Positions 1 through 36,280 of a stretch of DNA of 64,000 bases are shown here, piece after piece. The stretch comes from Escherichia coli (GTDB lineage: Bacteria; Pseudomonadota; Gammaproteobacteria; Enterobacterales; Enterobacteriaceae), in assembly GCF_030013595.1 (NCBI RefSeq), contig NZ_CP122768.1, one strand, 5' to 3'. How positions within the stretch are numbered: position 1 is the first letter of the stretch; each line of letters opens with the position of its first letter. A program made the translations under genes and the position numbers. The notes below the pieces were generated by a model. That model did not search any database. It had not been told where the DNA came from and was given only the letters and a program-made list of their open reading frames with translations.

Positions 1-758
1 AACAGCGAGCCGTAACACGGCTTTGTATCCAGTGTGGATTATTTCTTTTGCAACATGGTGCGGAAAGCGCGTTGGTTGATGAGCTTTCCTCACGACTGGG
101 TCGGGCGCTGGGAATGGACAGCGTCGAAAGTTCTATCTCTTCGAACGCCATAGTGCTGACAACTATTAAAGATGGGCAATGCCTGACATCGACACGAAAA
201 AATCAAGATCGCGGCATTAATATGCATGTGGTGACTGAAGTCCAGCACATTGTGATTCTGGCGGAGCATCATCTGCTGGATTACAAAGGTGTAGAGAAAC
301 GATTTAGCCAAATTCAGCCATTACGTTACCCGAGATGGCTGGTAGCCTTAATGGTCGGCCTTTCTTGCGCCTGTTTCTGTAAACTCAATAAAGGTGGCTG
401 GGATGGTGCCGTCATCACCTTCTTTGCCAGTACGGTCGCGATGTATATCCGCCAGCTACTGGCACAGCGTCATCTTCATCCACAGATCAACTTTTGCCTC
501 ACCGCTTTCGCCGCCACCACCATTTCCGGATTGCTTTTGCAACTTCCCACTTTCAGCAATACCCCCACCATCGCGATGGCCGCCAGCGTTCTGCTGCTGG
601 TGCCGGGCTTTCCGTTGATTAATGCCGTCGCCGATATGTTTAAAGGCCACATCAATACCGGACTGGCACGCTGGGCGATCGCCAGTCTGCTGACACTGGC
701 TACCTGCGTCGGCGTGGTGATGGCACTGACGATTTGGGGGCTACGCGGATGGGTGTGA
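1..758 (+). CDS. yjjP: YjjP-like inner-membrane protein, 5' end probably beyond the window edge
   Basis: ORF to 758 in the track (TTG at 48); reading frame stays open back to position 3; hydrophobic product; synteny with yjjB-dnaT-dnaC. Confidence 0.7.
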
Positions 759-19805: not shown

Positions 19806-21395
19806 ATGAACAATAACGATCTGGTCGCGAAGCTGTGGAAGCTGTGTGACAATCTGCGCGATGGCGGCGTTTCCTATCAAAACTACGTCAATGAACTCGC
19901 CTCGCTGCTGTTTTTGAAAATGTGTAAAGAGACCGGACAGGAAGCGGAGTACCTGCCGGTAGGCTACCGCTGGGATGACCTGAAATCCCGTATCGGTCAG
20001 GAGCAGTTGCAGTTCTACCGTAATCTGCTGGTACATCTGGGCGCCGACAATCAAAAGCTGGTGCAGGCGGTGTTCCAGAACGTCAACACCACCATTACCC
20101 AGCCGAAACAGTTGACCGAACTGGTCGGCAATATGGATTCACTGGACTGGTACAACGGCGCACACGGTAAGTCGCGCGATGACTTCGGCGATATGTACGA
20201 AGGGCTGTTGCAGAAAAACGCCAACGAAACCAAGTCTGGCGCGGGCCAGTACTTCACCCCGCGTCCGCTGATTAAAACCATTATTCATCTGCTGAAACCG
20301 CAGCCGCGTGAAGTGGTGCAGGACCCGGCAGCCGGTACGGCGGGCTTTTTGATTGAAGCCGACCGCTACGTTAAGTCGCAGACCAATGATCTGGACGACC
20401 TTGATGGCGACACGCAGGATTTCCAGATCCACCGCGCGTTTATCGGCCTCGAACTGGTGCCCGGCACCCGTCGTCTGGCGCTGATGAACTGCCTGCTGCA
20501 CGATATTGAAGGCAACCTCGACCACGGCGGCGCAATCCGTCTGGGCAACACCCTGGGCAGCGACGGTGAAAACCTGCCGAAGGCGCATATTGTCGCCACT
20601 AACCCGCCGTTTGGCAGCGCCGCGGGCACCAACATTACCCGCACCTTTGTTCACCCGACCAGCAACAAACAGCTGTGCTTTATGCAGCATATTATCGAAA
20701 CGCTGCATCCCGGCGGTCGTGCGGCGGTAGTGGTGCCAGATAACGTGCTGTTTGAAGGCGGCAAAGGCACCGACATCCGTCGTGACCTGATGGATAAGTG
20801 TCATCTGCATACCATCCTGCGTCTGCCGACCGGTATTTTTTACGCTCAGGGCGTGAAAACTAACGTGCTGTTCTTTACCAAAGGGACGGTGGCGAACCCG
20901 CATCAGGATAAGAACTGCACCGATGATGTGTGGGTGTACGACCTGCGTACCAATATGCCGAGCTTCGGCAAGCGCACGCCGTTTACCGACGAGCATTTGC
21001 AGCCGTTTGAGCGCGTGTATGGCGAAGATCCCCACGGTTTAAGCCCGCGCACTGAAGGTGAATGGAGTTTTAACGCCGAAGAGACGGAAGTTGCCGACAG
21101 CGAAGAGAACAAAAACACCGATCAGCATCTGGCTACCAGCCGCTGGCGCAAGTTCAGCCGCGAGTGGATCCGCACCGCGAAATCCGATTCGCTGGATATC
21201 TCCTGGCTGAAAGATAAAGACAGTATTGATGCCGACAACCTGCCGGAGCCGGATGTATTAGCGGCAGAAGCGATGGGTGAACTGGTGCAGGCGCTGGGCG
21301 AACTGGATGCGCTGATGCGTGAACTGGGGGCGAGCGATGAGGCCGATTTGCAGCGTCAGTTGCTGGAAGAAGCATTTGGTGGGGTGAAGGAATGA
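19806..21395 (+). CDS. hsdM: type I restriction-modification N6-adenine methyltransferase M subunit
   Basis: 529-aa ORF with the NPPF catalytic motif (VATNPPFGS); 4-nt overlap with hsdS. Confidence 0.95.
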   Translation: MNNNDLVAKLWKLCDNLRDGGVSYQNYVNELASLLFLKMCKETGQEAEYLPVGYRWDDLKSRIGQEQLQFYRNLLVHLGADNQKLVQAVFQNVNTTITQPKQLTELVGNMDSLDWYNGAHGKSRDDFGDMYEGLLQKNANETKSGAGQYFTPRPLIKTIIHLLKPQPREVVQDPAAGTAGFLIEADRYVKSQTNDLDDLDGDTQDFQIHRAFIGLELVPGTRRLALMNCLLHDIEGNLDHGGAIRLGNTLGSDGENLPKAHIVATNPPFGSAAGTNITRTFVHPTSNKQLCFMQHIIETLHPGGRAAVVVPDNVLFEGGKGTDIRRDLMDKCHLHTILRLPTGIFYAQGVKTNVLFFTKGTVANPHQDKNCTDDVWVYDLRTNMPSFGKRTPFTDEHLQPFERVYGEDPHGLSPRTEGEWSFNAEETEVADSEENKNTDQHLATSRWRKFSREWIRTAKSDSLDISWLKDKDSIDADNLPEPDVLAAEAMGELVQALGELDALMRELGASDEADLQRQLLEEAFGGVKE

Positions 21396-22760
21396 GTGCG
21401 GAGAAATTGCCGGAGGGGTGGGTTGAGTGTGAATTATCCGAACTCGGTAACATTGTTACAGGGAAAACTCCCAGTACCAAGGAGCCTTCCAATTTTGGAG
21501 GCAGCATTCCTTTCATTAAACCAGGCGATCTTGATCTCGGTGGCTATATCATGAATACCGCCGATACTCTGACGGAGAAAGGGTTATCTCTTGTCCCCAC
21601 TCTTCCTGCCAATTCAGTCGTTGTGACGTGTATTGGAAATTTAGGAAAAGTTGGAATTACCGCTAAAAAATCAGCATCTAATCAACAAATAAATGCATTG
21701 ATCCCGTCAGAAAAGCTAAATGTAAAATTTGTTTATTACCAAATTTTAACATTAAAACCATGGTTAGAGTCTCAATCAGCAGCTACTACAATTGCGATTG
21801 TGAACAAGAGCAAATTTTCTCAGGCACCATTTAAATTCCCGTCGCTTGCCGAACAAAAAATCATCACTGAAAAACTCGATACGCTGCTGGCGCAGGTAGA
21901 CAGCACCAAAGCACGTCTTGAGCAAATCCCACAAATCCTGAATCGTTTTCGTCAGGCTATTCTAGCTAATGCTGTGGAAGGAAAATTGACCGACGAATGG
22001 CGAGCCGGAAAATGTTATATTACAGAAATCAAAAAATATCTGATATTATTCAGAATGCTCAAGTCGGATTAGTTCGTTCAGCTTCAGATCAAAGCGAAAT
22101 ATGCACTCAAAAAATGAGAACGCCTTACATAAAAATGAATAACATTCACAATGTTCTCGGAACAAATTTAGAAAAACTCGCTTATGTCAACTGTGATAGC
22201 TATGAACTGGAAAAATATAGATTAAAAAATGGAGATTGGCTCTTTAATACACGAAATAGTTATGAGTTAGTTGGTAAATCCTGTGTCTGGAATGGATGTA
22301 GCAATGCTGTATATAATAATAATATATTAAGAGTTAGACTAAAAGAAAACTACAATTCTGTTTTTTTAGATTATTGGTTTCACTCGTTCTATGGAGTGAG
22401 CATGCTTAATAGTATTAAATCCGCAACAACAAATGTTGCTGCGATATATCAGAAAGAACTCTTAAGTAAAAGTGTTCCATTCCCCCCCTTCCCGAACAAG
22501 CCGAGATTGTTCGCCGCGTCGAACAACTCTTCGCCTACGCCGACACCATAGAAAAACAGGTCAACAACGCCTTAGCCCGCGTTAACAACCTGACGCAATC
22601 CATCCTGGCAAAAGCGTTCCGTGGTGAACTCACCGCCCAGTGGCGGGCCGAAAACCCGGATTTAATCAGCGGAGAAAACAGCGCCGCCGCGTTGCTGGAA
22701 AAAATCAAAGCTGAACGCGCAGCCAGCGGGGGTAAAAAAGCCTCGCGTAAAAAATCCTGA
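21392..22760 (+). pseudogene. hsdS: type I specificity subunit HsdS, disrupted by two 1-bp homopolymer frameshifts; target-recognition domains differ from EcoKI
   Basis: three consecutive reading-frame pieces (21392..22072, 21997..22551, and a third frame to the TGA at 22758..22760); conserved central (LAEQKIITEKLDTLLAQVDSTKARLEQIPQIL) and C-terminal ([25 protein letters not shown]...) regions are recognisable. Confidence 0.8.
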
Positions 22761-25916: not shown

Positions 25917-25938
25917 GCGGTAAGTTTTATAGAAAATA

Positions 25939-25965
25939 CCGCTCCCGACACGACGTCGGGAGCGG
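25939..25965. terminator. bidirectional stem-loop between convergent mcrC and the large helicase gene
   Basis: perfect 11-bp inverted repeat ccgctcccgac / gtcgggagcgg. Confidence 0.55.
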
Positions 25966-25972
25966 CACATCA

Positions 25973-28900
25973 TCAGGAGGCGAGCACCTCCACCAGCACA
26001 TCCGTTGCCCAGCTCTCTTCACTGTTGACCACATTCCCTTCCTGACAAGCTTGATCCATTTTGACTAACTGGAAAGAAACGTCATCGCGGAAGTCAAAGT
26101 AATGCCATTGCGATGCAAAGTTGATACGCCAGTAGCCCATCCCCTGATCGAAGCGGATCTTCAATACCTGACCATCCTCAAAAGTCACCGTCAGTTTACG
26201 ATGGTGAGGGATATCGCGCGGCGAGTCGAACACCGCCAGTTCTACCGGCCTGCCCAGCGCAGCTGCAAACCACTGATCAGCGAAATCCTGAAAATCCGCT
26301 ATGCTCATCCAGTCATGAAAAGGCCGGTTACCGGGGCGATCTTTATCTTTAAACAGCGTATCCAGCGTCACTTCAGCGCCATCGGTCAGCTTTGTTTTTA
26401 GCGGTCTCAGAATTGATCCCAACAACGCCAGCGCAACCGGGTTTTGCAGATAGCGATCGGTATAGTGAACGCCGGTAATTCGCGTATTTTTCATCAGTGA
26501 CTGCGCTTCTTCATGGTCGTTAAACAGCACGTCCCAGAAGCGTTGCCCAAACTGCGACAACGGTCCATTCAACTGTTTGTGGATCTGGATGTCTTTGACC
26601 CGCTCGACAGCGTTGGCGGCTTTAGCTGGCAGAATAAACTCGCTCAGTTCTACCGTTTTATAACCGAGGCTACGCACTACCAGTTCGTCATTCAGGTGCC
26701 ACTCCGGCCCCGGAATCGTTGCCTGCTGACTGCGAGAGGCCAGCGTCATCACGCGATCGGCAAAGGTAACCTGGGCAACAATCGGTAATTGCAGATCCTG
26801 TTCAACATGGCACAGTCGCACACCCAGCGCAGTAAATTGCGATAGTTCATGCAACAGGTCCGGATCATCCACTCCCGCAGGAATAACAAGATCGACCTCG
26901 ACGTTGTCTTTTAGCCGATAGCTCTGAATAGCCGCGCGGAACTGACGGGCGTATAAATCCCACTCATTGGGCGCGCCAGTCATCCACAGGGTGAGCTTTT
27001 CAGCGCCTTCGTTAATCGCCCGGCGAATCGTATCGCCAATAGCGCCAGGGCAGTAGCGGGCATCCGGCAGCGAGAATGTCTCTTCATCCGGTAAACCGAT
27101 GTAATACGTGAAGTCATCGCCAAGCCAGGCCAGCGCCGCTTTGCGATCCAGCAAATCATGATCGTGGCGAGTCTGGGAATCAAGCAGGCATTCACTGCAT
27201 GCAGTATCACAATGGCGGCAGCCTAACTGTTTCACCATTCCCTGCAAAATAGCTTCAATGTGTACCGGTGCGCTGGAGGCAAAACCTGCACCACCGCTGA
27301 TCACATCATAAAGCTGTACGGCTAATACCGATTGCCCATCCTCCAGTCTGACCGGACGTACAGAATAGCCGAGTTCTGCGGTGGAGATACCCAGAACGCC
27401 CGCCAGCGCCTGACGCAGAGCAACCGCCAGAGTCATGGCGACAATCCGCCCCTCTTCTGTGTTATCTGGCAGATACTCGCCATTTTGTGGTTTGCGCAGA
27501 ACCATTTCAAAGACATCGGTGCGCGCCAGTGCGCCCAGGGTGACTTTCTTCACGAGTGCCGTCGAACCTGGGCAAATCAGACGATGATTCTGGCTGTCGC
27601 GGTCCGCTTTACCCGGACGCGGTGGATAGTGAGCTTCCATACTTTTCGGCGCATCATTTTCATTCAGCATCGACTCCGCACGGCCACAGCTCAGACACAA
27701 TGCATAACCGTGTCCACCTTCCCCCAGACTTTGCTGGAAAACATGCCCATCAGCCCCAGAAGCCATATAACCCATTAGCGGGTTAGGCAACGGTACGGGC
27801 TCTGCTTTAACAAAGACCCACGCGGGGACAACCGGGACGAATTTCATGGTTTCAATATTGTTCGTTACCGGAGCATGTGCATCGGTAACAAACCCGGCAG
27901 GCTGCAGCACCTGACGGCGATTATCCAGGATGATTTTTTCGCCGCAGGCGCTGTTGGAGCAAAAGAGCATCCCGGAACTGCTCATCCCCTCTTCATAGCC
28001 AATGGTCCCGCATTTATGACAGCGCCAGGCGCAATCCAGACGCTGGGCTTCATTGGTATCAGCATTAATGTTGTGCCAGTGCAGTGAGACACCGGCAGAG
28101 CGGAAGACACGGCCATCAAGAATGATCTCTGCTCCCGGTGCATATTCACGAATGGCAACACCGAGGTTACGGGAAGGTAATCCTTTATAACGGGAGACGT
28201 TATCTTCACGGTCCTTTTTATCACGACTTTTCTGCGATTTTTCGCGGATATAATCTTCCATCGTGAAGTTATCAAACGTCACTACATCTGTCGGGAAACC
28301 GTATCCCGGCAGGAAGGTTCTGGCAGCCAGATCGCGCAGCAGATACTCGCCACAGTGCCGTTTCTTCTCCAGCTCTATGCGCTTACGATAAGGCGTTTGC
28401 GGCTGCGACTCACGCTCCTGGGTCACGAGATCGCGATAAACGGAGAGCCACCGCTGTTGCAGGAAGGTGATCGCGTTGATTGTTTTGTCCCGCAGATGTT
28501 CGGCTCTTGCGCCATGCAATGCCGTACCTTTCACCAGCCGTTCCAGCGCCGTGTCGATATCAAGAACAGAGCGTTCCAGCCAGACTTTGAAGCGTTCGCA
28601 TTTTGACTCCCCGTCATCTTCACCGAAAAACCAGAGGCTATCGAGGCTGGTTTTCTCTTTATCGGTTTCGCCAATAACGTTACATAAAAAGTCGGACAGT
28701 AATAATGCATTGACGTGACGTTGCACCAGTCGGGCGGAGTTCATCGCGACCATGGGTGCCGGGATCATGGTTTCAAACGGCCAGAGTGGGTTGGCAAAAA
28801 CCTGTTGGTCGTGTGGGTTACCCTTACATAGGGTGTAAGAGATCGCGCGCGATTCTTTACTACGCCCGGCTCGCCCGGCGCGCTGTAAATAGTTGGCCGG

Positions 28901-31900
28901 ATGTGGCGGTACGTTGTTCATTACCACCGCAGTAATGCCCCCGATATCAACCCCCATTTCCATGGTGGTGGAACAGTTGAGAACATTTAGTTGCCCATTC
29001 TTGAACATCTTTTCATAGCTTTGCAGACGTTCTGACGACTGCTGGGCAGAGTGCTCGGCAGTGCGATAGTAGAAACCGCCTTCCACGACACGATCGTTGA
29101 TGTCTGTCCAGACGTTTTCCGACCGCAATTGTGCGATCAGCGGATCATTGCTGACCCAGTCGCGTGCTTTTGCCAGACCCTCTGCGTAGTCTTCCTGTGA
29201 ACGATCCAGCTTCCAGATTTCCGGCATGGTGACTTTCTGCGCGACAAAAGTGTCATATTGCGCCTGGGTAAGATGCTCGAACGAAATATGGGTAGGCAGA
29301 TAAGGGGTTAAGCCTTTAAAAGCCGTATCCAGGATTTTATTGGTTACCGGGCAAATCCAGGCATCCGTGATTAAAGAAAAAGTCATATGCTCTTTCGGTA
29401 AATAAAAACGGTTGCCATCGGGTTTCAGTACTGCAAGCGGTCCGGTAAGTTGGGCCCATGCTTCTTTCAGCCATGTATTGATAATATCAATAGTCGCCGT
29501 ATTGACGGTTTTGAATCCAGCCCCCAGCATCAGTAACTTCGCTAAACGATGGGATACGTTGCCATTACGAATTTGAGGCCAGCGTCTGTTCTGATTATCT
29601 TCAGGATCTTTTGATTCCGGGTTACGGACGAATTTTGATGAAAAACGGCTACCAATCCAGTTTTTCAGCTCATCATCCAGCTGTGTGAAGTTGCTTTCGC
29701 GAACATAAAGATCCAACGTAACCTTGAGAAAATCGCGCCAGTCATCCAGCGTTAATCCTTTTTCCTGCCAGTGCAAGGGGCTCTTATGTATTTTCTCCAG
29801 CCCCTGGTAACCAACCTGAACCAGCCCCTGTGTTTCCAGGCTGTTAGTCCGTTTAGGGCGACGCATGAATTCCCGGAACAACAACATTTCCGAAAGCTTT
29901 AGTGGCCCGCCGTTTTTATTAAACACTTCAGGCTGCAAATAGTGGTTATATTTCAGTACCGGGCCACGGATATCGGCTTTATCTTTAAGCTCGTTAACCA
30001 TTTCTGTCCAGGTGCGGGATACCAGGGTAGTTGCTGCTTTTCCACCGGTTGCAGCCTGATAAGCCTGTTCAAGCTGTTCAGCCTGCGCTTGTGACAATTT
30101 CGCCTGGTCTGGCATTCCCCAGCTTCGATATTCTTCTGCCTGCTCACGGGCTTGCTTCGCCCTGGCCGCTAATTTTTCCAGATCGGCATTGGCATTCGGC
30201 GCCGTGGACGTTTGCGTCCGTTGATGCCAGCTCAGAATTTCGACTACGCTTCCGCGTAAGAGACTGCGTTCTGCTTCTTGCTGCATACGCACCGCCATTC
30301 GAGCTGTACCTTGTCGACTGTCCGTAAAGGTAATGAGTCGACGTCCTCGCCCTGGCAACGAATCTGGTCCGACGCCCTCTTTGCCTTCATCACTGGTAAA
30401 GTCCTGACAATACTCAAGAACGGTAGGCACGATGTTAGTAACGTAAAATGGCCCACCTAATAATGCACGCCGGAAGGGTTGTTTCCCACTCATGCCTCGG
30501 TAGCCACAGCCGCTGGCGCTACAAACCTTTTTATCATTAATAATCAGCGGAATGCTGTCATTATTAATAACGCCAATACGGCGCGTCTGACGGTCGAGGC
30601 GTTGTAGGGTATAGCCTGTCTCGCTGGTCTCTCCTGCGGCAATAATCAACGGAGGCAGGAAACCGTTCTCTTTTTCGACTTTTTCCTCTGTAGTGTCATG
30701 TTCAACAGGTACTTCATCCTGCAAGGAGAACTCATCGCCACCTTTATTTTCCCATTGGACAAGTTTGCCCTTTTTGTCCTGCGCCAGAAGATGAGGCTCA
30801 TTACAATCATTACAGAACGCCACTTCGTAGACAGGGCTTCCACAGTCGCAATTTTGTCGCTGGTTCACATACACATAGCCAAAGGGCCAGCCTTTTTCGA
30901 GCGGTGTACCGTGCTTTAATCTGCAATCTTTATCAACACAAGCCCATATTCCTTGGGTATTACGCTGGAAGATATGCGCCCTGACTTTAAGAAATGCGGG
31001 ATCCTTTGCATTAGGTTGAGTCCCTGAACAGACATCGATCCAACGCAGTACTTCCTGCTGGCTGTAATGCTGTTTTGTCAGCGCATTTAACCGCTGCGTC
31101 ATCTCATCCAGTTTCATTGGATTAGGTTGGCTAACCAACATTTCACGTATGTAACGCGCTTCGGGGGAGTGCGTAAGCGCATAAAAGCGCTCAGGACTTA
31201 TCCCTTTAATTTTATTATCATTTTTATCTTTTAGATCCAGATCAGGTATTTGCTCTATTTCGTCTAACGGAACAGAAACGTTTTTGGATGGTTCCAGTTC
31301 AGGAATCACCCGACTTCCGTCCAGAACATCGATGCGCTCCTGCGGGATACCGGATAATTCAGAGAGAAATTTTTTCAGCTGTTTTTCGGCGTCGCTGCCG
31401 GCAATGGTCGCAGAGGTCGCTACAAAGCGCACATCATCTGGCGTCACGCCAAACGCTGTCATCACACGACGCAGCTGGAGTGCCAGTTCAGCGGCCTGCG
31501 ACCCGACATAGGTATGCGCTTCATCCAGTACAATCCAGCGTAGTGATTTTTGTGCTTTGGATTGCTGGATAATCGGGGCGTCGACCTGGCGAACCATCAT
31601 ATATTCCAGCATCGTGCCGTTGGTCACCAGAATCGGGGCAGGCTCCAGACGCATCTTTTCACGGGATAAGACTTCATTTGGTCTATTATCCTGCACTGTT
31701 TTCATTTTTGCGTGGAGCTCTTCTGTATTTCCGTTATACAAGCAGTAGCGGATCCCAGTACCAAAACCACGCGTCCAGGCATCCAGACGCTCGCGCTGTG
31801 AATTAATCAAGGCGTTCAATGGATAGAGAAAAAGGGCTCGGACACCAACCAACGGATTGTTGCCATTTTCATGCAGTTCCCGGTAAAGATCTTCCAGCAC

Positions 31901-32314
31901 CGGAACCATAAAACATTCCGTTTTACCTGAACCCGTACCACTGGTTACCACCACTGAATGTTTCTTTTCCAGCAAAGCTTTCCAACTGGCTAACTGGTGT
32001 GTAAAAGGCTTCCAGTCAGCACCAAATCGGTACCGGCCATTACTCTGATTATCCAGTGAATCAACCACTGCTTTGCTCAACAATGCGTTGCCTTCCGTCA
32101 GACTGCGCATCGTGTGGTTTGACTCCTTCCAGCCAAACATTTGCTGGAATACCGGAGAAGCAAGGAATGAGCCCGGTTTCCCACAATCAGCCCCCATTTG
32201 TTGCGCGAGATGTTCACGCAGCTGCGGGTTGGTTACGCCCATGATACTGAGCGTTGCTTCAGTTGAACGAGACAACGATTGTTCAATAAGTGACGAAAAA
32301 TAGCGTGTAGTCAT
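25973..32314 (-). CDS. 2113-aa DEAD/DEAH-box helicase with Cys-rich zinc-ribbon-like modules (DruE-like defence helicase; inferred)
   Basis: Walker A SGTGSGKT (31919..31945), DEAH (31514..31525), SAT motif, helicase motif V MEMGVDIG and [10 protein letters not shown] (28862..28885), Cys clusters [45 protein letters not shown] before the ATG. Confidence 0.85.
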
Positions 32315-32326
32315 CCTTATTCCTTT

Positions 32327-35300
32327 TTATTTTTTAGCAACATAACGCAACAGGCTGCACTGAAAGATGGTCTTAAACCAGCGGGAATCGAAGTCCCTGA
32401 CTTGCCTCAGGAAAAATACGGCACCGGGTTTACGGTCAAATACAGCTTCAAAAGAAGTATTTCCGCTTGCCACAGCTGCAGCGAAGACGGGTAACCAGGC
32501 CACGGAATAGCGGTGATTTGCGTCAGGATTAATACCAATCACTGGATTTTTTTGTGACATCATCCATTTATACAGACGCTTGCAGCCATATTCAGGCCAG
32601 CGAGCTTCACTGTGCTCACGTAAAAGCTCCTGATACCACCCGTGGACACAAGATTCAGGAATAGACGGAGGGAGATATCCGTTACTTAACCATTTCTCAA
32701 TTTCATCGGCATATGTCGGGAACACGAGCCCCAGCCGTTGAAACATATTAGTAACCAGTAATTTCTGGGTTTCCTCCGGTGCACCTTTTTGGCTCAGGAA
32801 CAATTTGAAACGCTCAGATGCAGCTTTGATCTCAAAGATGGGGAAAAACTCCCATAGAATAGGGAACTCATTCTCAATACGACTCAGGTACTCTGCTGAC
32901 ATTTCAAATTTGAAGAGCGACATCGCCAATGCCTGCGGATGCTGCACTAGTGCACGCCATACTTCAAAGGTTGCCAGCGGTAAATAACCAAATTGATCGT
33001 ACAGGCTACGCATAAATTGCCAGCCGGAATGGGCAGGATCGTTAGCCATCTGTCCGAGAACCAGTGTGATGGTATTAACTTCTGCCTGTGGATTAAAAAG
33101 CTGGGTCGCTTTCTGCAATGAGCGGATGTTGCTTTCTTCTACCGGTAACGAAGATTCGCCACGAATGAAGCAGGGGCGAAAAGCCATCTCCTCACCCGGT
33201 TTAGGAACAACCAACCATGGCCCATTTTTGTTAACGATTGAGCTCAACTCATATTCACCGACAGGCACTCCCTCGCTCATTCTTGATGCTAAGGGGATGG
33301 ATTTCCTCTCGGGTTCACTTAACAGCATGATAACGGGGGAAGGAATCTGCCCAGCACGATGGTTCACTGACTGGCTGAGTAATAGTTCTTTTTCATAATC
33401 ATAGCGCAGGCTGTATTTATAGCGACGAATTTGCCAGGCCATGACCACACCTGCCCCCGTAATACGCATCTCAACAACCTGATCAATACCTGCCTCAAGT
33501 GAAATCAGGTTCTCAATATGTTCGCGCAGACTATAGAGATTCAATTCAACAGGACGATCGCTCTACGCCGTATAACACCATTCATGCCATGCCTGTAATC
33601 CACTAACGGAGCGCAAATACAACTGCAATGTATATTTTGTCGGCTCACCATTTCTGGAGAACAGAAACGCTCTGGAACCCAGCAGATCATGCAGCGTAAT
33701 GTTTTTATCCAGAGGACGTCCGTTTACATCAAGAGCGAGACAGCCTTTAGCGGGAAAAGGTAACTCAATGTCGATGGGGTCAGCCGCCAAATTAGGCAGA
33801 ACTTGTAATGTAATAAATGCCGGAGGTACCCCTTCCGCTTTAAGTTGTATCTCTGTTCGCCCCTCAGTACGCTTACGTGTAGCCTCCAATGTTTTATCTT
33901 TAAGTTTTGCTACACAAGGATGCTGTGTGGTGATTAAGATAGTGCCTTCATTTGCGTGCATTCCACCTTTTATCTCAATACTGAAATCAGCAGGCAAGAT
34001 ACCGATTTTGCGACGCAAGAGCGTTTCATTGTTACTATTACGGATAGAAAGATATTGAGCCCCCAGCATCTCTTGTATATGACATTGCTCAATTGAAATT
34101 CCGCTCAGGTAACGCGTTACATCAATGCTTTGAATATCCGGTAGTGTAGAAATGACTTTTGGTACACCAATAAATGTTTCATCTGGATGACAAACCCAGC
34201 TTGCACGCTTTCCATTTAGAGCAAACCTTCCGATGCTGATTTGTTCTCTTCCGGTGCGAATCCGATAAGTTTCATTTGCTGTAACTGTAACGTCCTGACA
34301 TCCCTTCACAGGTAGTGCTTTTAGTCCTAATACGTTTACTGCGCTCGATTGGCCATCAAAACCAGCAACATTGCTATTATCCCGAGGGAGTACAATCAGA
34401 ACATCGCTGCTTCGCACACTGCAAGAAGCCTGTCCCTGTAACAGCCATTGATCTGCATCAACGATGAAGGTTAACGGCACCTCACCAATGGCAATTTCAC
34501 TGTCATCAAGTTTAATGCTCCCAACAATCATCCCTCCAGCACGAGCCACTAATGACAAACCAGCCGATGGATTTTGCCTGACAAATCTCACTTCGCTTTT
34601 ACGTAATCGAACTGTTGCCTGTCTGTTTTCCAGGGAAGCATAGGCTGGCCCAAGGCCAGAGACTTCCTCACCATCTTCACAAATGGCAAGTTCAAAGCGC
34701 GTAGTTGACGGCTCGCTTGTTACAGGAAAGGAAACTTCGTCCGGAAGAGATACTATCACCCTAAGCTCATCTGGATGCTTTTCTGACCAATAGAATTGGC
34801 AACGCGTACTCTTATTTTTTTGTAGTCGAGGCTTAGCCTCTACAGAGGCTGCGCATAGCAGTCCATTCAAAAAATGCGTTCCTGTTTCATCATCTAACGG
34901 TATTGGAAACTCGCTTCGCCAGGTAGGGTGAACCTTCTCAAGCTGTTGTACTGGTTCTTTGTGATTTATTAGGTTGTGAGTAAGTACTAAGGAATTGAGG
35001 TTATCAGCCATATGACTGATAAGTTCTACAGAGGTATCTTCGCTAAAAACAGTTGGCAGCGCTGATTTTTCTATGACAGCTCTTGCCAGCGAAAGGGCAG
35101 AAAAACCTGACTGCTTTGCTTGCTCATATTGTCCAAGGATCCTGGAGAAAACAGCCAGAAAGCGACTGTCTGATTCTTTGAGTAGCCGGAAAGGTAAACC
35201 ACCTTCACTGAATAATGTTCCGAGAAAATTGCGTCGTTCAGATTCATAAAATCGAATTGGGCGCAGCCAGTAATCTTCCATCCCTTTCGGTACGATAGTA

Positions 35301-35617
35301 CCAAGCTCTGTGGCGGTGAATGAAATCCCTATTTTTTTATATATAGGGTCCCACGTCCATCCGCATTGCCGTTCATAATCCCTGCGGTACCACTCAGAGC
35401 AAAAAAGAACAAAACAGGCAGCAAAGTCCCTATTACATATATTAGATTGTGATTGACCGACCGCACGGAGTAGCTGCGTTAATTGGGTATATTCATCATT
35501 GGTTGCATGATATTCATAAAGAGGACGGCCATCCGGTTGTCTCAACCCTCTAAGATTCACAAAGTTACTTAGCCAGGAAGTACATTTTACCCATGAAATG
35601 TATTCTGATTGACCCAA
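32327..35617 (-). pseudogene. ~1096-aa protein of unknown function (DruH-like by position) interrupted by one in-frame TAG at 33563..33565
   Basis: ORFs 33563..35617 (684 aa) and 32327..33544 (405 aa) are in the same frame, separated only by TAG plus six sense codons; no Shine-Dalgarno precedes the downstream TTG; 12-nt gap with RBS to the helicase gene. Confidence 0.75.
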
Positions 35618-36115
35618 AGCAAGCTCCTTAGAGATAAAAGATACAAAAACAAAACCCTACAATACTTCTAATTTGAAAGAAAACTTTTCAAAATATCGTA
35701 TAATTAATCAGGCGGCAACAACTAATTTTTCAGGTCGGTACTATAAATTAATTTTAGATAAAAATGATATCAACTATCTATTAATCACAACTCATTTATC
35801 ACCTGGTTTTATAATTTCAAATGAAAATAAATCTCAAACAATCAAAAAGTATGCAGTAGCTAACATTTAACTTTCCAGGATATAAAACAATTAGAGAAAC
35901 TGCACAATAGCGAATAATGAGAGTTGTAAAGTCAGTCAAAAAACACAAGTAATCAGTGTGCGTTTTTTGACCGTTATCGACATGAGTTTAAAGAGTTTAG
36001 TGAAGAAGATATTCCTGTACACTCCATACCTATTGATGAATTGTCTCGGGAAAATTTTTATAACTTAATTTAAAAACATAAAAACGTTTTATTATATATA
36101 AATCTATAACCCCCA

Positions 36116-36280
36116 TCACTCCACATCCTCCCTGCGTAACCCGATATCCTTCAACCGCTCATCACTCATCTGCTGTAACACCCGCCGGGCCTGCATTTGC
36201 CGCCGCCAACGCCTCACTGCCTGCCAGAGTTGCACAAGTCCAATAAACGGTGCTTTAGCTTTGTTTTCGTGAAATTCCAT
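36116..36280 (-). CDS. yjiS: DUF1127 small protein
   Basis: 54-aa ORF below the track cutoff (MEFHENKAKAPFIGLVQLWQAVRRWRRQMQARRVLQQMSDERLKDIGLRREDVE), GAGGAGG Shine-Dalgarno, divergent from yjiR. Confidence 0.7.
   Translation of the reverse strand: MEFHENKAKAPFIGLVQLWQAVRRWRRQMQARRVLQQMSDERLKDIGLRREDVE

Follow-up and report, generated by a model that had tools for sequence, protein, structure and literature searches.

The druH-druE locus and codon 685 in its orthologues

The window analysed here is a stretch of 64,000 nucleotides of Escherichia coli DNA (contig NZ_CP122768.1), and all coordinates refer to it unless another sequence is named. Its minus strand carries the two genes yjiT (druH) and druE, which form a type III Druantia module within the E. 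coli immigration control region (Table 1). The gene order mrr, hsdR, hsdM, hsdS, symE, mcrB, mcrC, druE, yjiT, yjiS, yjiR of the closest complete genome, HCP5S3_I2 (NZ_CM149870.1), is shared by the window and by WP2-S18-ESBL-07 (NZ_AP021944.1).

Table 1. Features at the druH-druE locus. Positions are those of the window, or residues of DruH where indicated.
Feature	Position	Strand	Description
Promoter-like site upstream of druH	35751..35780	-	consensus match only
yjiT/druH	32327..35617	-	1096 codons and a stop, broken by amber codon 685; orthologues are a single 1096-aa 'protein YjiT'; PADLOC DruH3 PDLC00049
druH 5' part	33566..35617	-	684 codons; N-terminal alpha-helical domain and most of the Ig-like beta region; predicted truncated product
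Amber TAG, codon 685	33563..33565	-	window letters 'cta'; orthologues have TTG (Leu)
druH 3' part	32327..33562	-	out of reach of translation from the druH start
First in-frame start after the amber, TTG codon 692	33542..33544	-	window letters 'caa'; start of the mechanically called 405-aa ORF
In-frame ATG, codon 726	33440..33442	-	AGGTG 5 nt upstream; only downstream start with a plausible ribosome-binding site
druE	25973..32314	-	intact, 2113 aa; starts 12 nt past the druH stop codon
Terminator-like hairpin directly after druE	25936..25968	-	15-bp stem
N-terminal helical domain of DruH	residues ~1-260		AlphaFold model
Long beta-rich region of DruH	residues 272-818		AlphaFold model
C-terminal all-helical domain of DruH	residues 834-1095		AlphaFold model

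Translation of yjiT/druH gives one frame of 1097 codons, running from 35617 to 32327, with a sole internal stop at codon 685. The list of minus-strand open reading frames accordingly holds entries of 684 aa (33563..35617) and 405 aa (32327..33544), followed by one of 2113 aa (25973..32314). A first-pass annotation, made from the letters alone, had described the two shorter frames as lying in the same frame, parted only by the TAG and six sense codons, and both the coordinates and the letters confirm this: the 18 bases at 33545..33562 read AGC GAT CGT CCT GTT GAA (S D R P V E). The two frames are not chance neighbours, since both match consecutive parts of a single PADLOC DruH profile (PDLC00049), the N-terminal piece at profile positions 1-684 (E = 0) and the C-terminal piece at positions 685-1099 (E = 1.8e-212). 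The Pfam families YjiT_N and YjiT_2nd also match the N-terminal piece. For DruE, the PADLOC profile DruE3 (PDLC00037) covers residues 1-2109 (E = 0), and precomputed Pfam matches on the identical druE of sister loci comprise DEAD, YjiV_N, Helicase_C and MZB.

Type III Druantia is recognized by a large DruE helicase of ~2,000 aa (DEAD/DEAH core, YprA/MrfA-type, MZB/DUF1998) and by a ~1,100-aa DruH (YjiT-family) gene directly upstream of druE on the same strand, and both are present here. Both frames should also be uninterrupted; in the window this holds for druE, but druH has the TAG at codon 685. The locus is therefore a member of type III Druantia by descent, but a disrupted copy. The two genes look like one two-gene operon, as a promoter scan found no promoter-like site between the amber codon and druE, and a strong terminator follows druE.

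Codon 685 is TTG (Leu) in both orthologous genes that were compared base by base, those of HCP5S3_I2 and WP2-S18-ESBL-07. These druH genes are collinear with that of the window and 99.5-99.9% identical to it at the DNA level; unlike it, they encode a single 1096-aa YjiT. The difference between TTG and TAG is a T>A transversion on the coding strand, at position 33564. The druH of HCP5S3_I2 differs from the window's at three bases which, besides the stop, give L25V and L1070M. At both of these sites the window agrees with WP2-S18-ESBL-07, so the two substitutions are derived in HCP5S3_I2. Between the window and WP2-S18-ESBL-07, 15 bases of druH differ, and the 14 besides the stop are all synonymous. 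By these comparisons, the amber codon is the sole derived change in the window's druH.

The same picture was obtained in wider searches. A 61-mer centred on the TAG was searched in 5,426 complete E. coli genomes; it had no exact match among them, while 176 matched with one mismatch. In the complete genomes inspected, the orthologue is annotated as a single 1096-aa CDS, yjiT, followed by a DEAD/DEAH box helicase gene. A protein search returned 163 homologues, and nearly all of the 120 listed (40-98% identity) are single proteins of ~1090-1120 aa with 98-100% query coverage, the exceptions being a few partial or truncated entries and one 921-aa fusion. Residue 685 itself is unconserved, being Leu in E. 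coli and mostly Gly elsewhere in the homologue consensus. Repair of the stop in silico (TAG to TTG, Leu685) yields exactly a very common E. coli YjiT, which occurs in 1,211 index blocks from varied backgrounds, against 26 for the 684-aa truncated product. The first-pass annotation had proposed a nonsense mutation in one ~1096-aa DruH-like gene; orthologues one base apart, with TTG at codon 685 and a single 1096-aa YjiT, bear this out. It had also named the observation that would speak against such a mutation, namely many strains with the same two-ORF layout; this layout was looked for, and the TAG occurs in 0 of the 5,426 complete genomes.

HCP5S3_I2 differs from the window by ~21 substitutions and two single-base indels over 47 kb, and its druH is intact. 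The lesion in druH is recent, with no decay after it: druE is intact and does not differ from the HCP5S3_I2 gene, and druH holds no other derived change. HCP5S3_I2 also carries two insertion sequences that are absent from the window. A ~1.33-kb IS3-family element lies between yjiS and yjiR (window 36272..36277), and a 768-bp IS1 (window 45871..45879, where the alignments on its two sides overlap by 9 bp) splits a gene annotated as type III effector / pentapeptide-repeat protein, which is an intact 656-aa ORF in the window (44669..46639).

Predicted product and possible routes around the stop

An AlphaFold model of DruH was built from a 56-sequence alignment (mean pLDDT 82) and divides the protein into the three regions given in Table 1. 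Residue 685 sits between the beta strands 677-684 and 690-693 of the model, within the Ig-like region. A Foldseek search of the model against a PDB library without a DruH entry returned generic multi-Ig arrays (titin, cytokine receptors) at very low TM-scores, which adds only that the middle of DruH is Ig-like. Ribosomes that start at the normal druH start should halt at codon 685 and yield a 684-aa fragment. [quoted passage not shown]

The importance of the missing part has been described in homologous systems. [quoted passage not shown] In Pseudomonas aeruginosa DruH, the C-terminal helical domain makes the contact with the DruE stalk; defence is lost in mutants of this interface, and neither DruH alone nor DruE alone protects (10.64898/2026.05.13.724313). 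Because the C-terminal part of these homologues forms the ssDNA/ATP pocket and the DruE contact surface, the 684-aa fragment should neither bind DNA/ATP at the pocket nor engage DruE. The Druantia system of the clone is thus most probably non-functional despite the intact druE, since the C-terminal part is lost and the homologues need both DruH and DruE, defence being abolished when either gene is deleted. Published deletion and interface mutants of homologous DruH proteins give good support to the earlier suggestion that the defence system could be inactivated by the mutation, and by analogy with them this probably applies to the present allele.

The characterised DruH proteins are only distant sequence relatives of the one studied here. 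Transferring the numbering of the ATCC 8739 pocket residues (Y670, N672, H689, Y733, R1031, H1062, R1064, K1067) onto the YjiT-type DruH was rejected, as the residues mismatch. The pocket signature occurs in none of the 120 retrieved homologues, indicating that the ATCC 8739 protein belongs to another clade. A sequence search against solved structures found one DruH, 9tud_A, whose significant alignment is confined to the N-terminal domain (residues 14-266, E = 4e-22). What is expected of the truncated protein would therefore follow from collinearity and from the shared architecture and domain order.

The stop may also act on the downstream gene. Between it and druE lie 1.25 kb of message that would be left untranslated, which may lower druE expression via transcriptional polarity. 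Such polarity is plausible, and is put no higher because even the best C-rich, G-poor (rut-like) stretch found past the stop is modest (C-G = 0.14).

Loss of function would be avoided if translation restarted at TTG692 or ATG726 and the resulting fragments, of 684 aa and 371-405 aa, reassembled into active DruH. E. coli is known to restart translation after amber codons, as in the lacI restart proteins. TTG692 lies only 18 nt downstream of the stop, ATG726 has an SD-like AGGTG at the canonical 5-nt spacing, and the break falls between two beta strands of the model. However, as the first-pass annotation had remarked, no Shine-Dalgarno sequence precedes the TTG: the 20 upstream bases, AGAGCGATCGTCCTGTTGAA, hold no GGAGG/AGGA/GAGG-type motif. 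The break also lies inside an Ig-like domain, beside the published ssDNA/ATP pocket region, and even terminal tags on DruH abolish defence (10.64898/2026.05.13.724758). In addition, no other genome is broken at codon 685 among the complete genomes and the 120 listed homologues, and the restriction of the allele to one near-identical clone gives no sign of long-term maintenance. A functional split DruH is therefore considered very unlikely.

The ATG at codon 726 is preceded by GGGGGCAGGTG (33440..33462, minus strand), in which the SD-like site could support a putative internal start. A 371-aa product from this codon is sometimes called by gene callers and is on record (P0136). As a class, a naturally split two-subunit DruH was tried and rejected, with nearly all of the 120 listed homologues being full-length, the split confined to one clone and TTG692 lacking a Shine-Dalgarno sequence.

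Slightly less credible still is a leaky stop, in which amber suppression or natural read-through of UAG-A would supply full-length DruH sufficient for a defence that is attenuated or regulated. In E. coli, UAG followed by A terminates less efficiently than UAG-U or UAG-G, and the amber codon here is indeed followed by A. Basal read-through is typically <1%, which speaks against this route. Nothing points to a suppressor either, and the window contains no tRNA gene, suppressor or otherwise. The stop is also unconserved, with a sense codon in other strains. DruH is reportedly needed only at low copy number, ~1:2 relative to DruE (10.64898/2026.05.12.722862), and this counts in favour of the leaky stop. 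Programmed read-through or recoding was considered separately and rejected; the orthologues examined have a sense codon at this place, TTG in E. coli and mostly Gly farther out.

Clonal carriers of the allele and the hsdS lesion

The exact 684-aa product (P0121) and the exact 405-aa product are both on record in a large protein collection. The 684-aa product was found on at least 24 contigs (26 index blocks), some assembled in Logan from separate runs and others belonging to NCBI assemblies; independent carriers include the runs SRR30668523, SRR30668489 and ERR4421134 and the assemblies GCA_021649405.1 and GCA_008326365.1. On every carrier contig, the 405-aa ORF and the 2113-aa druE adjoin it. 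Over 6-10 kb, five carrier loci match the window at 99.98-100% identity, and two of these have one flanking SNP each. The TAG thus marks one near-identical clone.

These carriers also decide the second possibility raised in the first-pass annotation, a point sequencing or assembly error in a genome that truly has TTG and an intact druH. The window is one base apart from all 176 complete genomes that match the 61-mer, and it has a private 1-bp homopolymer difference in hsdS (C7 vs C8), so that its sequence may contain errors; yet an error at codon 685 is scarcely credible, because the change is a substitution and not a typical homopolymer-type error, and because the same truncated products in many independent read sets and assemblies exclude a single-assembly error.

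The preferred reading, to which we give a probability of roughly 0.88, is that the amber codon is a genuine, recent and clonally inherited nonsense mutation that makes druH (yjiT) a pseudogene. It is an ordinary lineage-specific pseudogenisation of a gene in a well-known defence system.

A second defence gene of the same region is also damaged. Compared with HCP5S3_I2, in which hsdS is an uninterrupted 456-aa ORF, the window's hsdS (21392..22760), encoding the specificity subunit of a type I R-M system, is broken by two 1-bp homopolymer deletions, A6 vs A7 and C7 vs C8, in homopolymers ending at ~22030 and 22481. The A6 frameshift, giving a 226-aa product, recurs in independent assemblies, where at least 13 contigs show it; one of them is the contig of GCA_021649405.1 on which druH also has its amber codon. 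The C7 tract is private to the window, GCA_021649405.1 having C8, and may reflect either a slip or faulty assembly. PGAP splits the hsdS of HCP5S3_I2 (NZ_CM149870.1, L003 18893..20263) into two partial pseudogene pieces despite its uninterrupted frame.

The A-tract lesion lies 11.5 kb from the druH amber, and neither gene is broken in the closest complete genome. In this one lineage, therefore, the immigration control region has lesions in two of its defence systems, the druH amber and hsdS A6. One could propose that the clone was selected for disarming this region, with the amber being adaptive and not neutral decay, or, as a weaker variant, that a split DruH made by restart works; this proposal is regarded as improbable. 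If adaptive loss were true, it could for example ease plasmid or prophage uptake or relieve a cost of Druantia III.

The main use of the finding is in annotation and phenotype prediction. PADLOC or DefenseFinder would probably still call Druantia III here from HMM matches, and the clone is most likely Druantia-negative. The amber codon bears on no open mechanistic question, and the allele, a single-base knockout adjoining an intact druE, could be used as a clean natural control.

Decayed and characterised Druantia III systems

This Druantia III copy is commonly decayed in E. coli, as seen in the yjiT/yjiV remnant of K-12, and the druH amber adds one example beside that remnant and IS insertions. 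Among complete genomes, 634 match druH, and only 222 of them cover at least 80% of the gene; several of the best-matching genomes carry IS3-family or IS100 insertions in druH. Two further observations were made at related loci. A 921-aa protein cluster (P0116, 229 members) combines YjiT domains with the MZB domain of DruE and looks like a yjiT-druE deletion fusion. In CP098927.1 (L022 13304..19700), the common yjiT allele is intact and no gene is called at the place of druE, which suggests a different decay of Druantia III in which druE is disrupted.

In E. coli K-12 MG1655, the same locus and system are present and likewise inactivated, as yjiT (b4342, 505 aa) and the pseudogene yjiV (b4486), with the remnant at L009 6415..10856. 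The two cases differ in extent: K-12 has lost large parts of both genes, whereas the window shows only one point nonsense mutation and keeps every other codon and druE intact.

Characterised type III Druantia systems are EcDruIII of E. coli ATCC 8739 and EDL933 (10.64898/2026.05.12.722862, 10.64898/2026.05.13.724758, PMC13192584) and PaDruantia of P. aeruginosa (10.64898/2026.05.13.724313). The locus described here shares with them the two-gene druH-druE module, recognized by the PADLOC DruH3 and DruE3 profiles. Its DruH also has, according to the AlphaFold model, the same domain succession: helical at the N-terminus, then an Ig-like string, then helical again at the C-terminus. It differs from EcDruIII and PaDruantia in belonging to another DruH sequence clade and in its premature stop, whereas both of those systems are intact and active.
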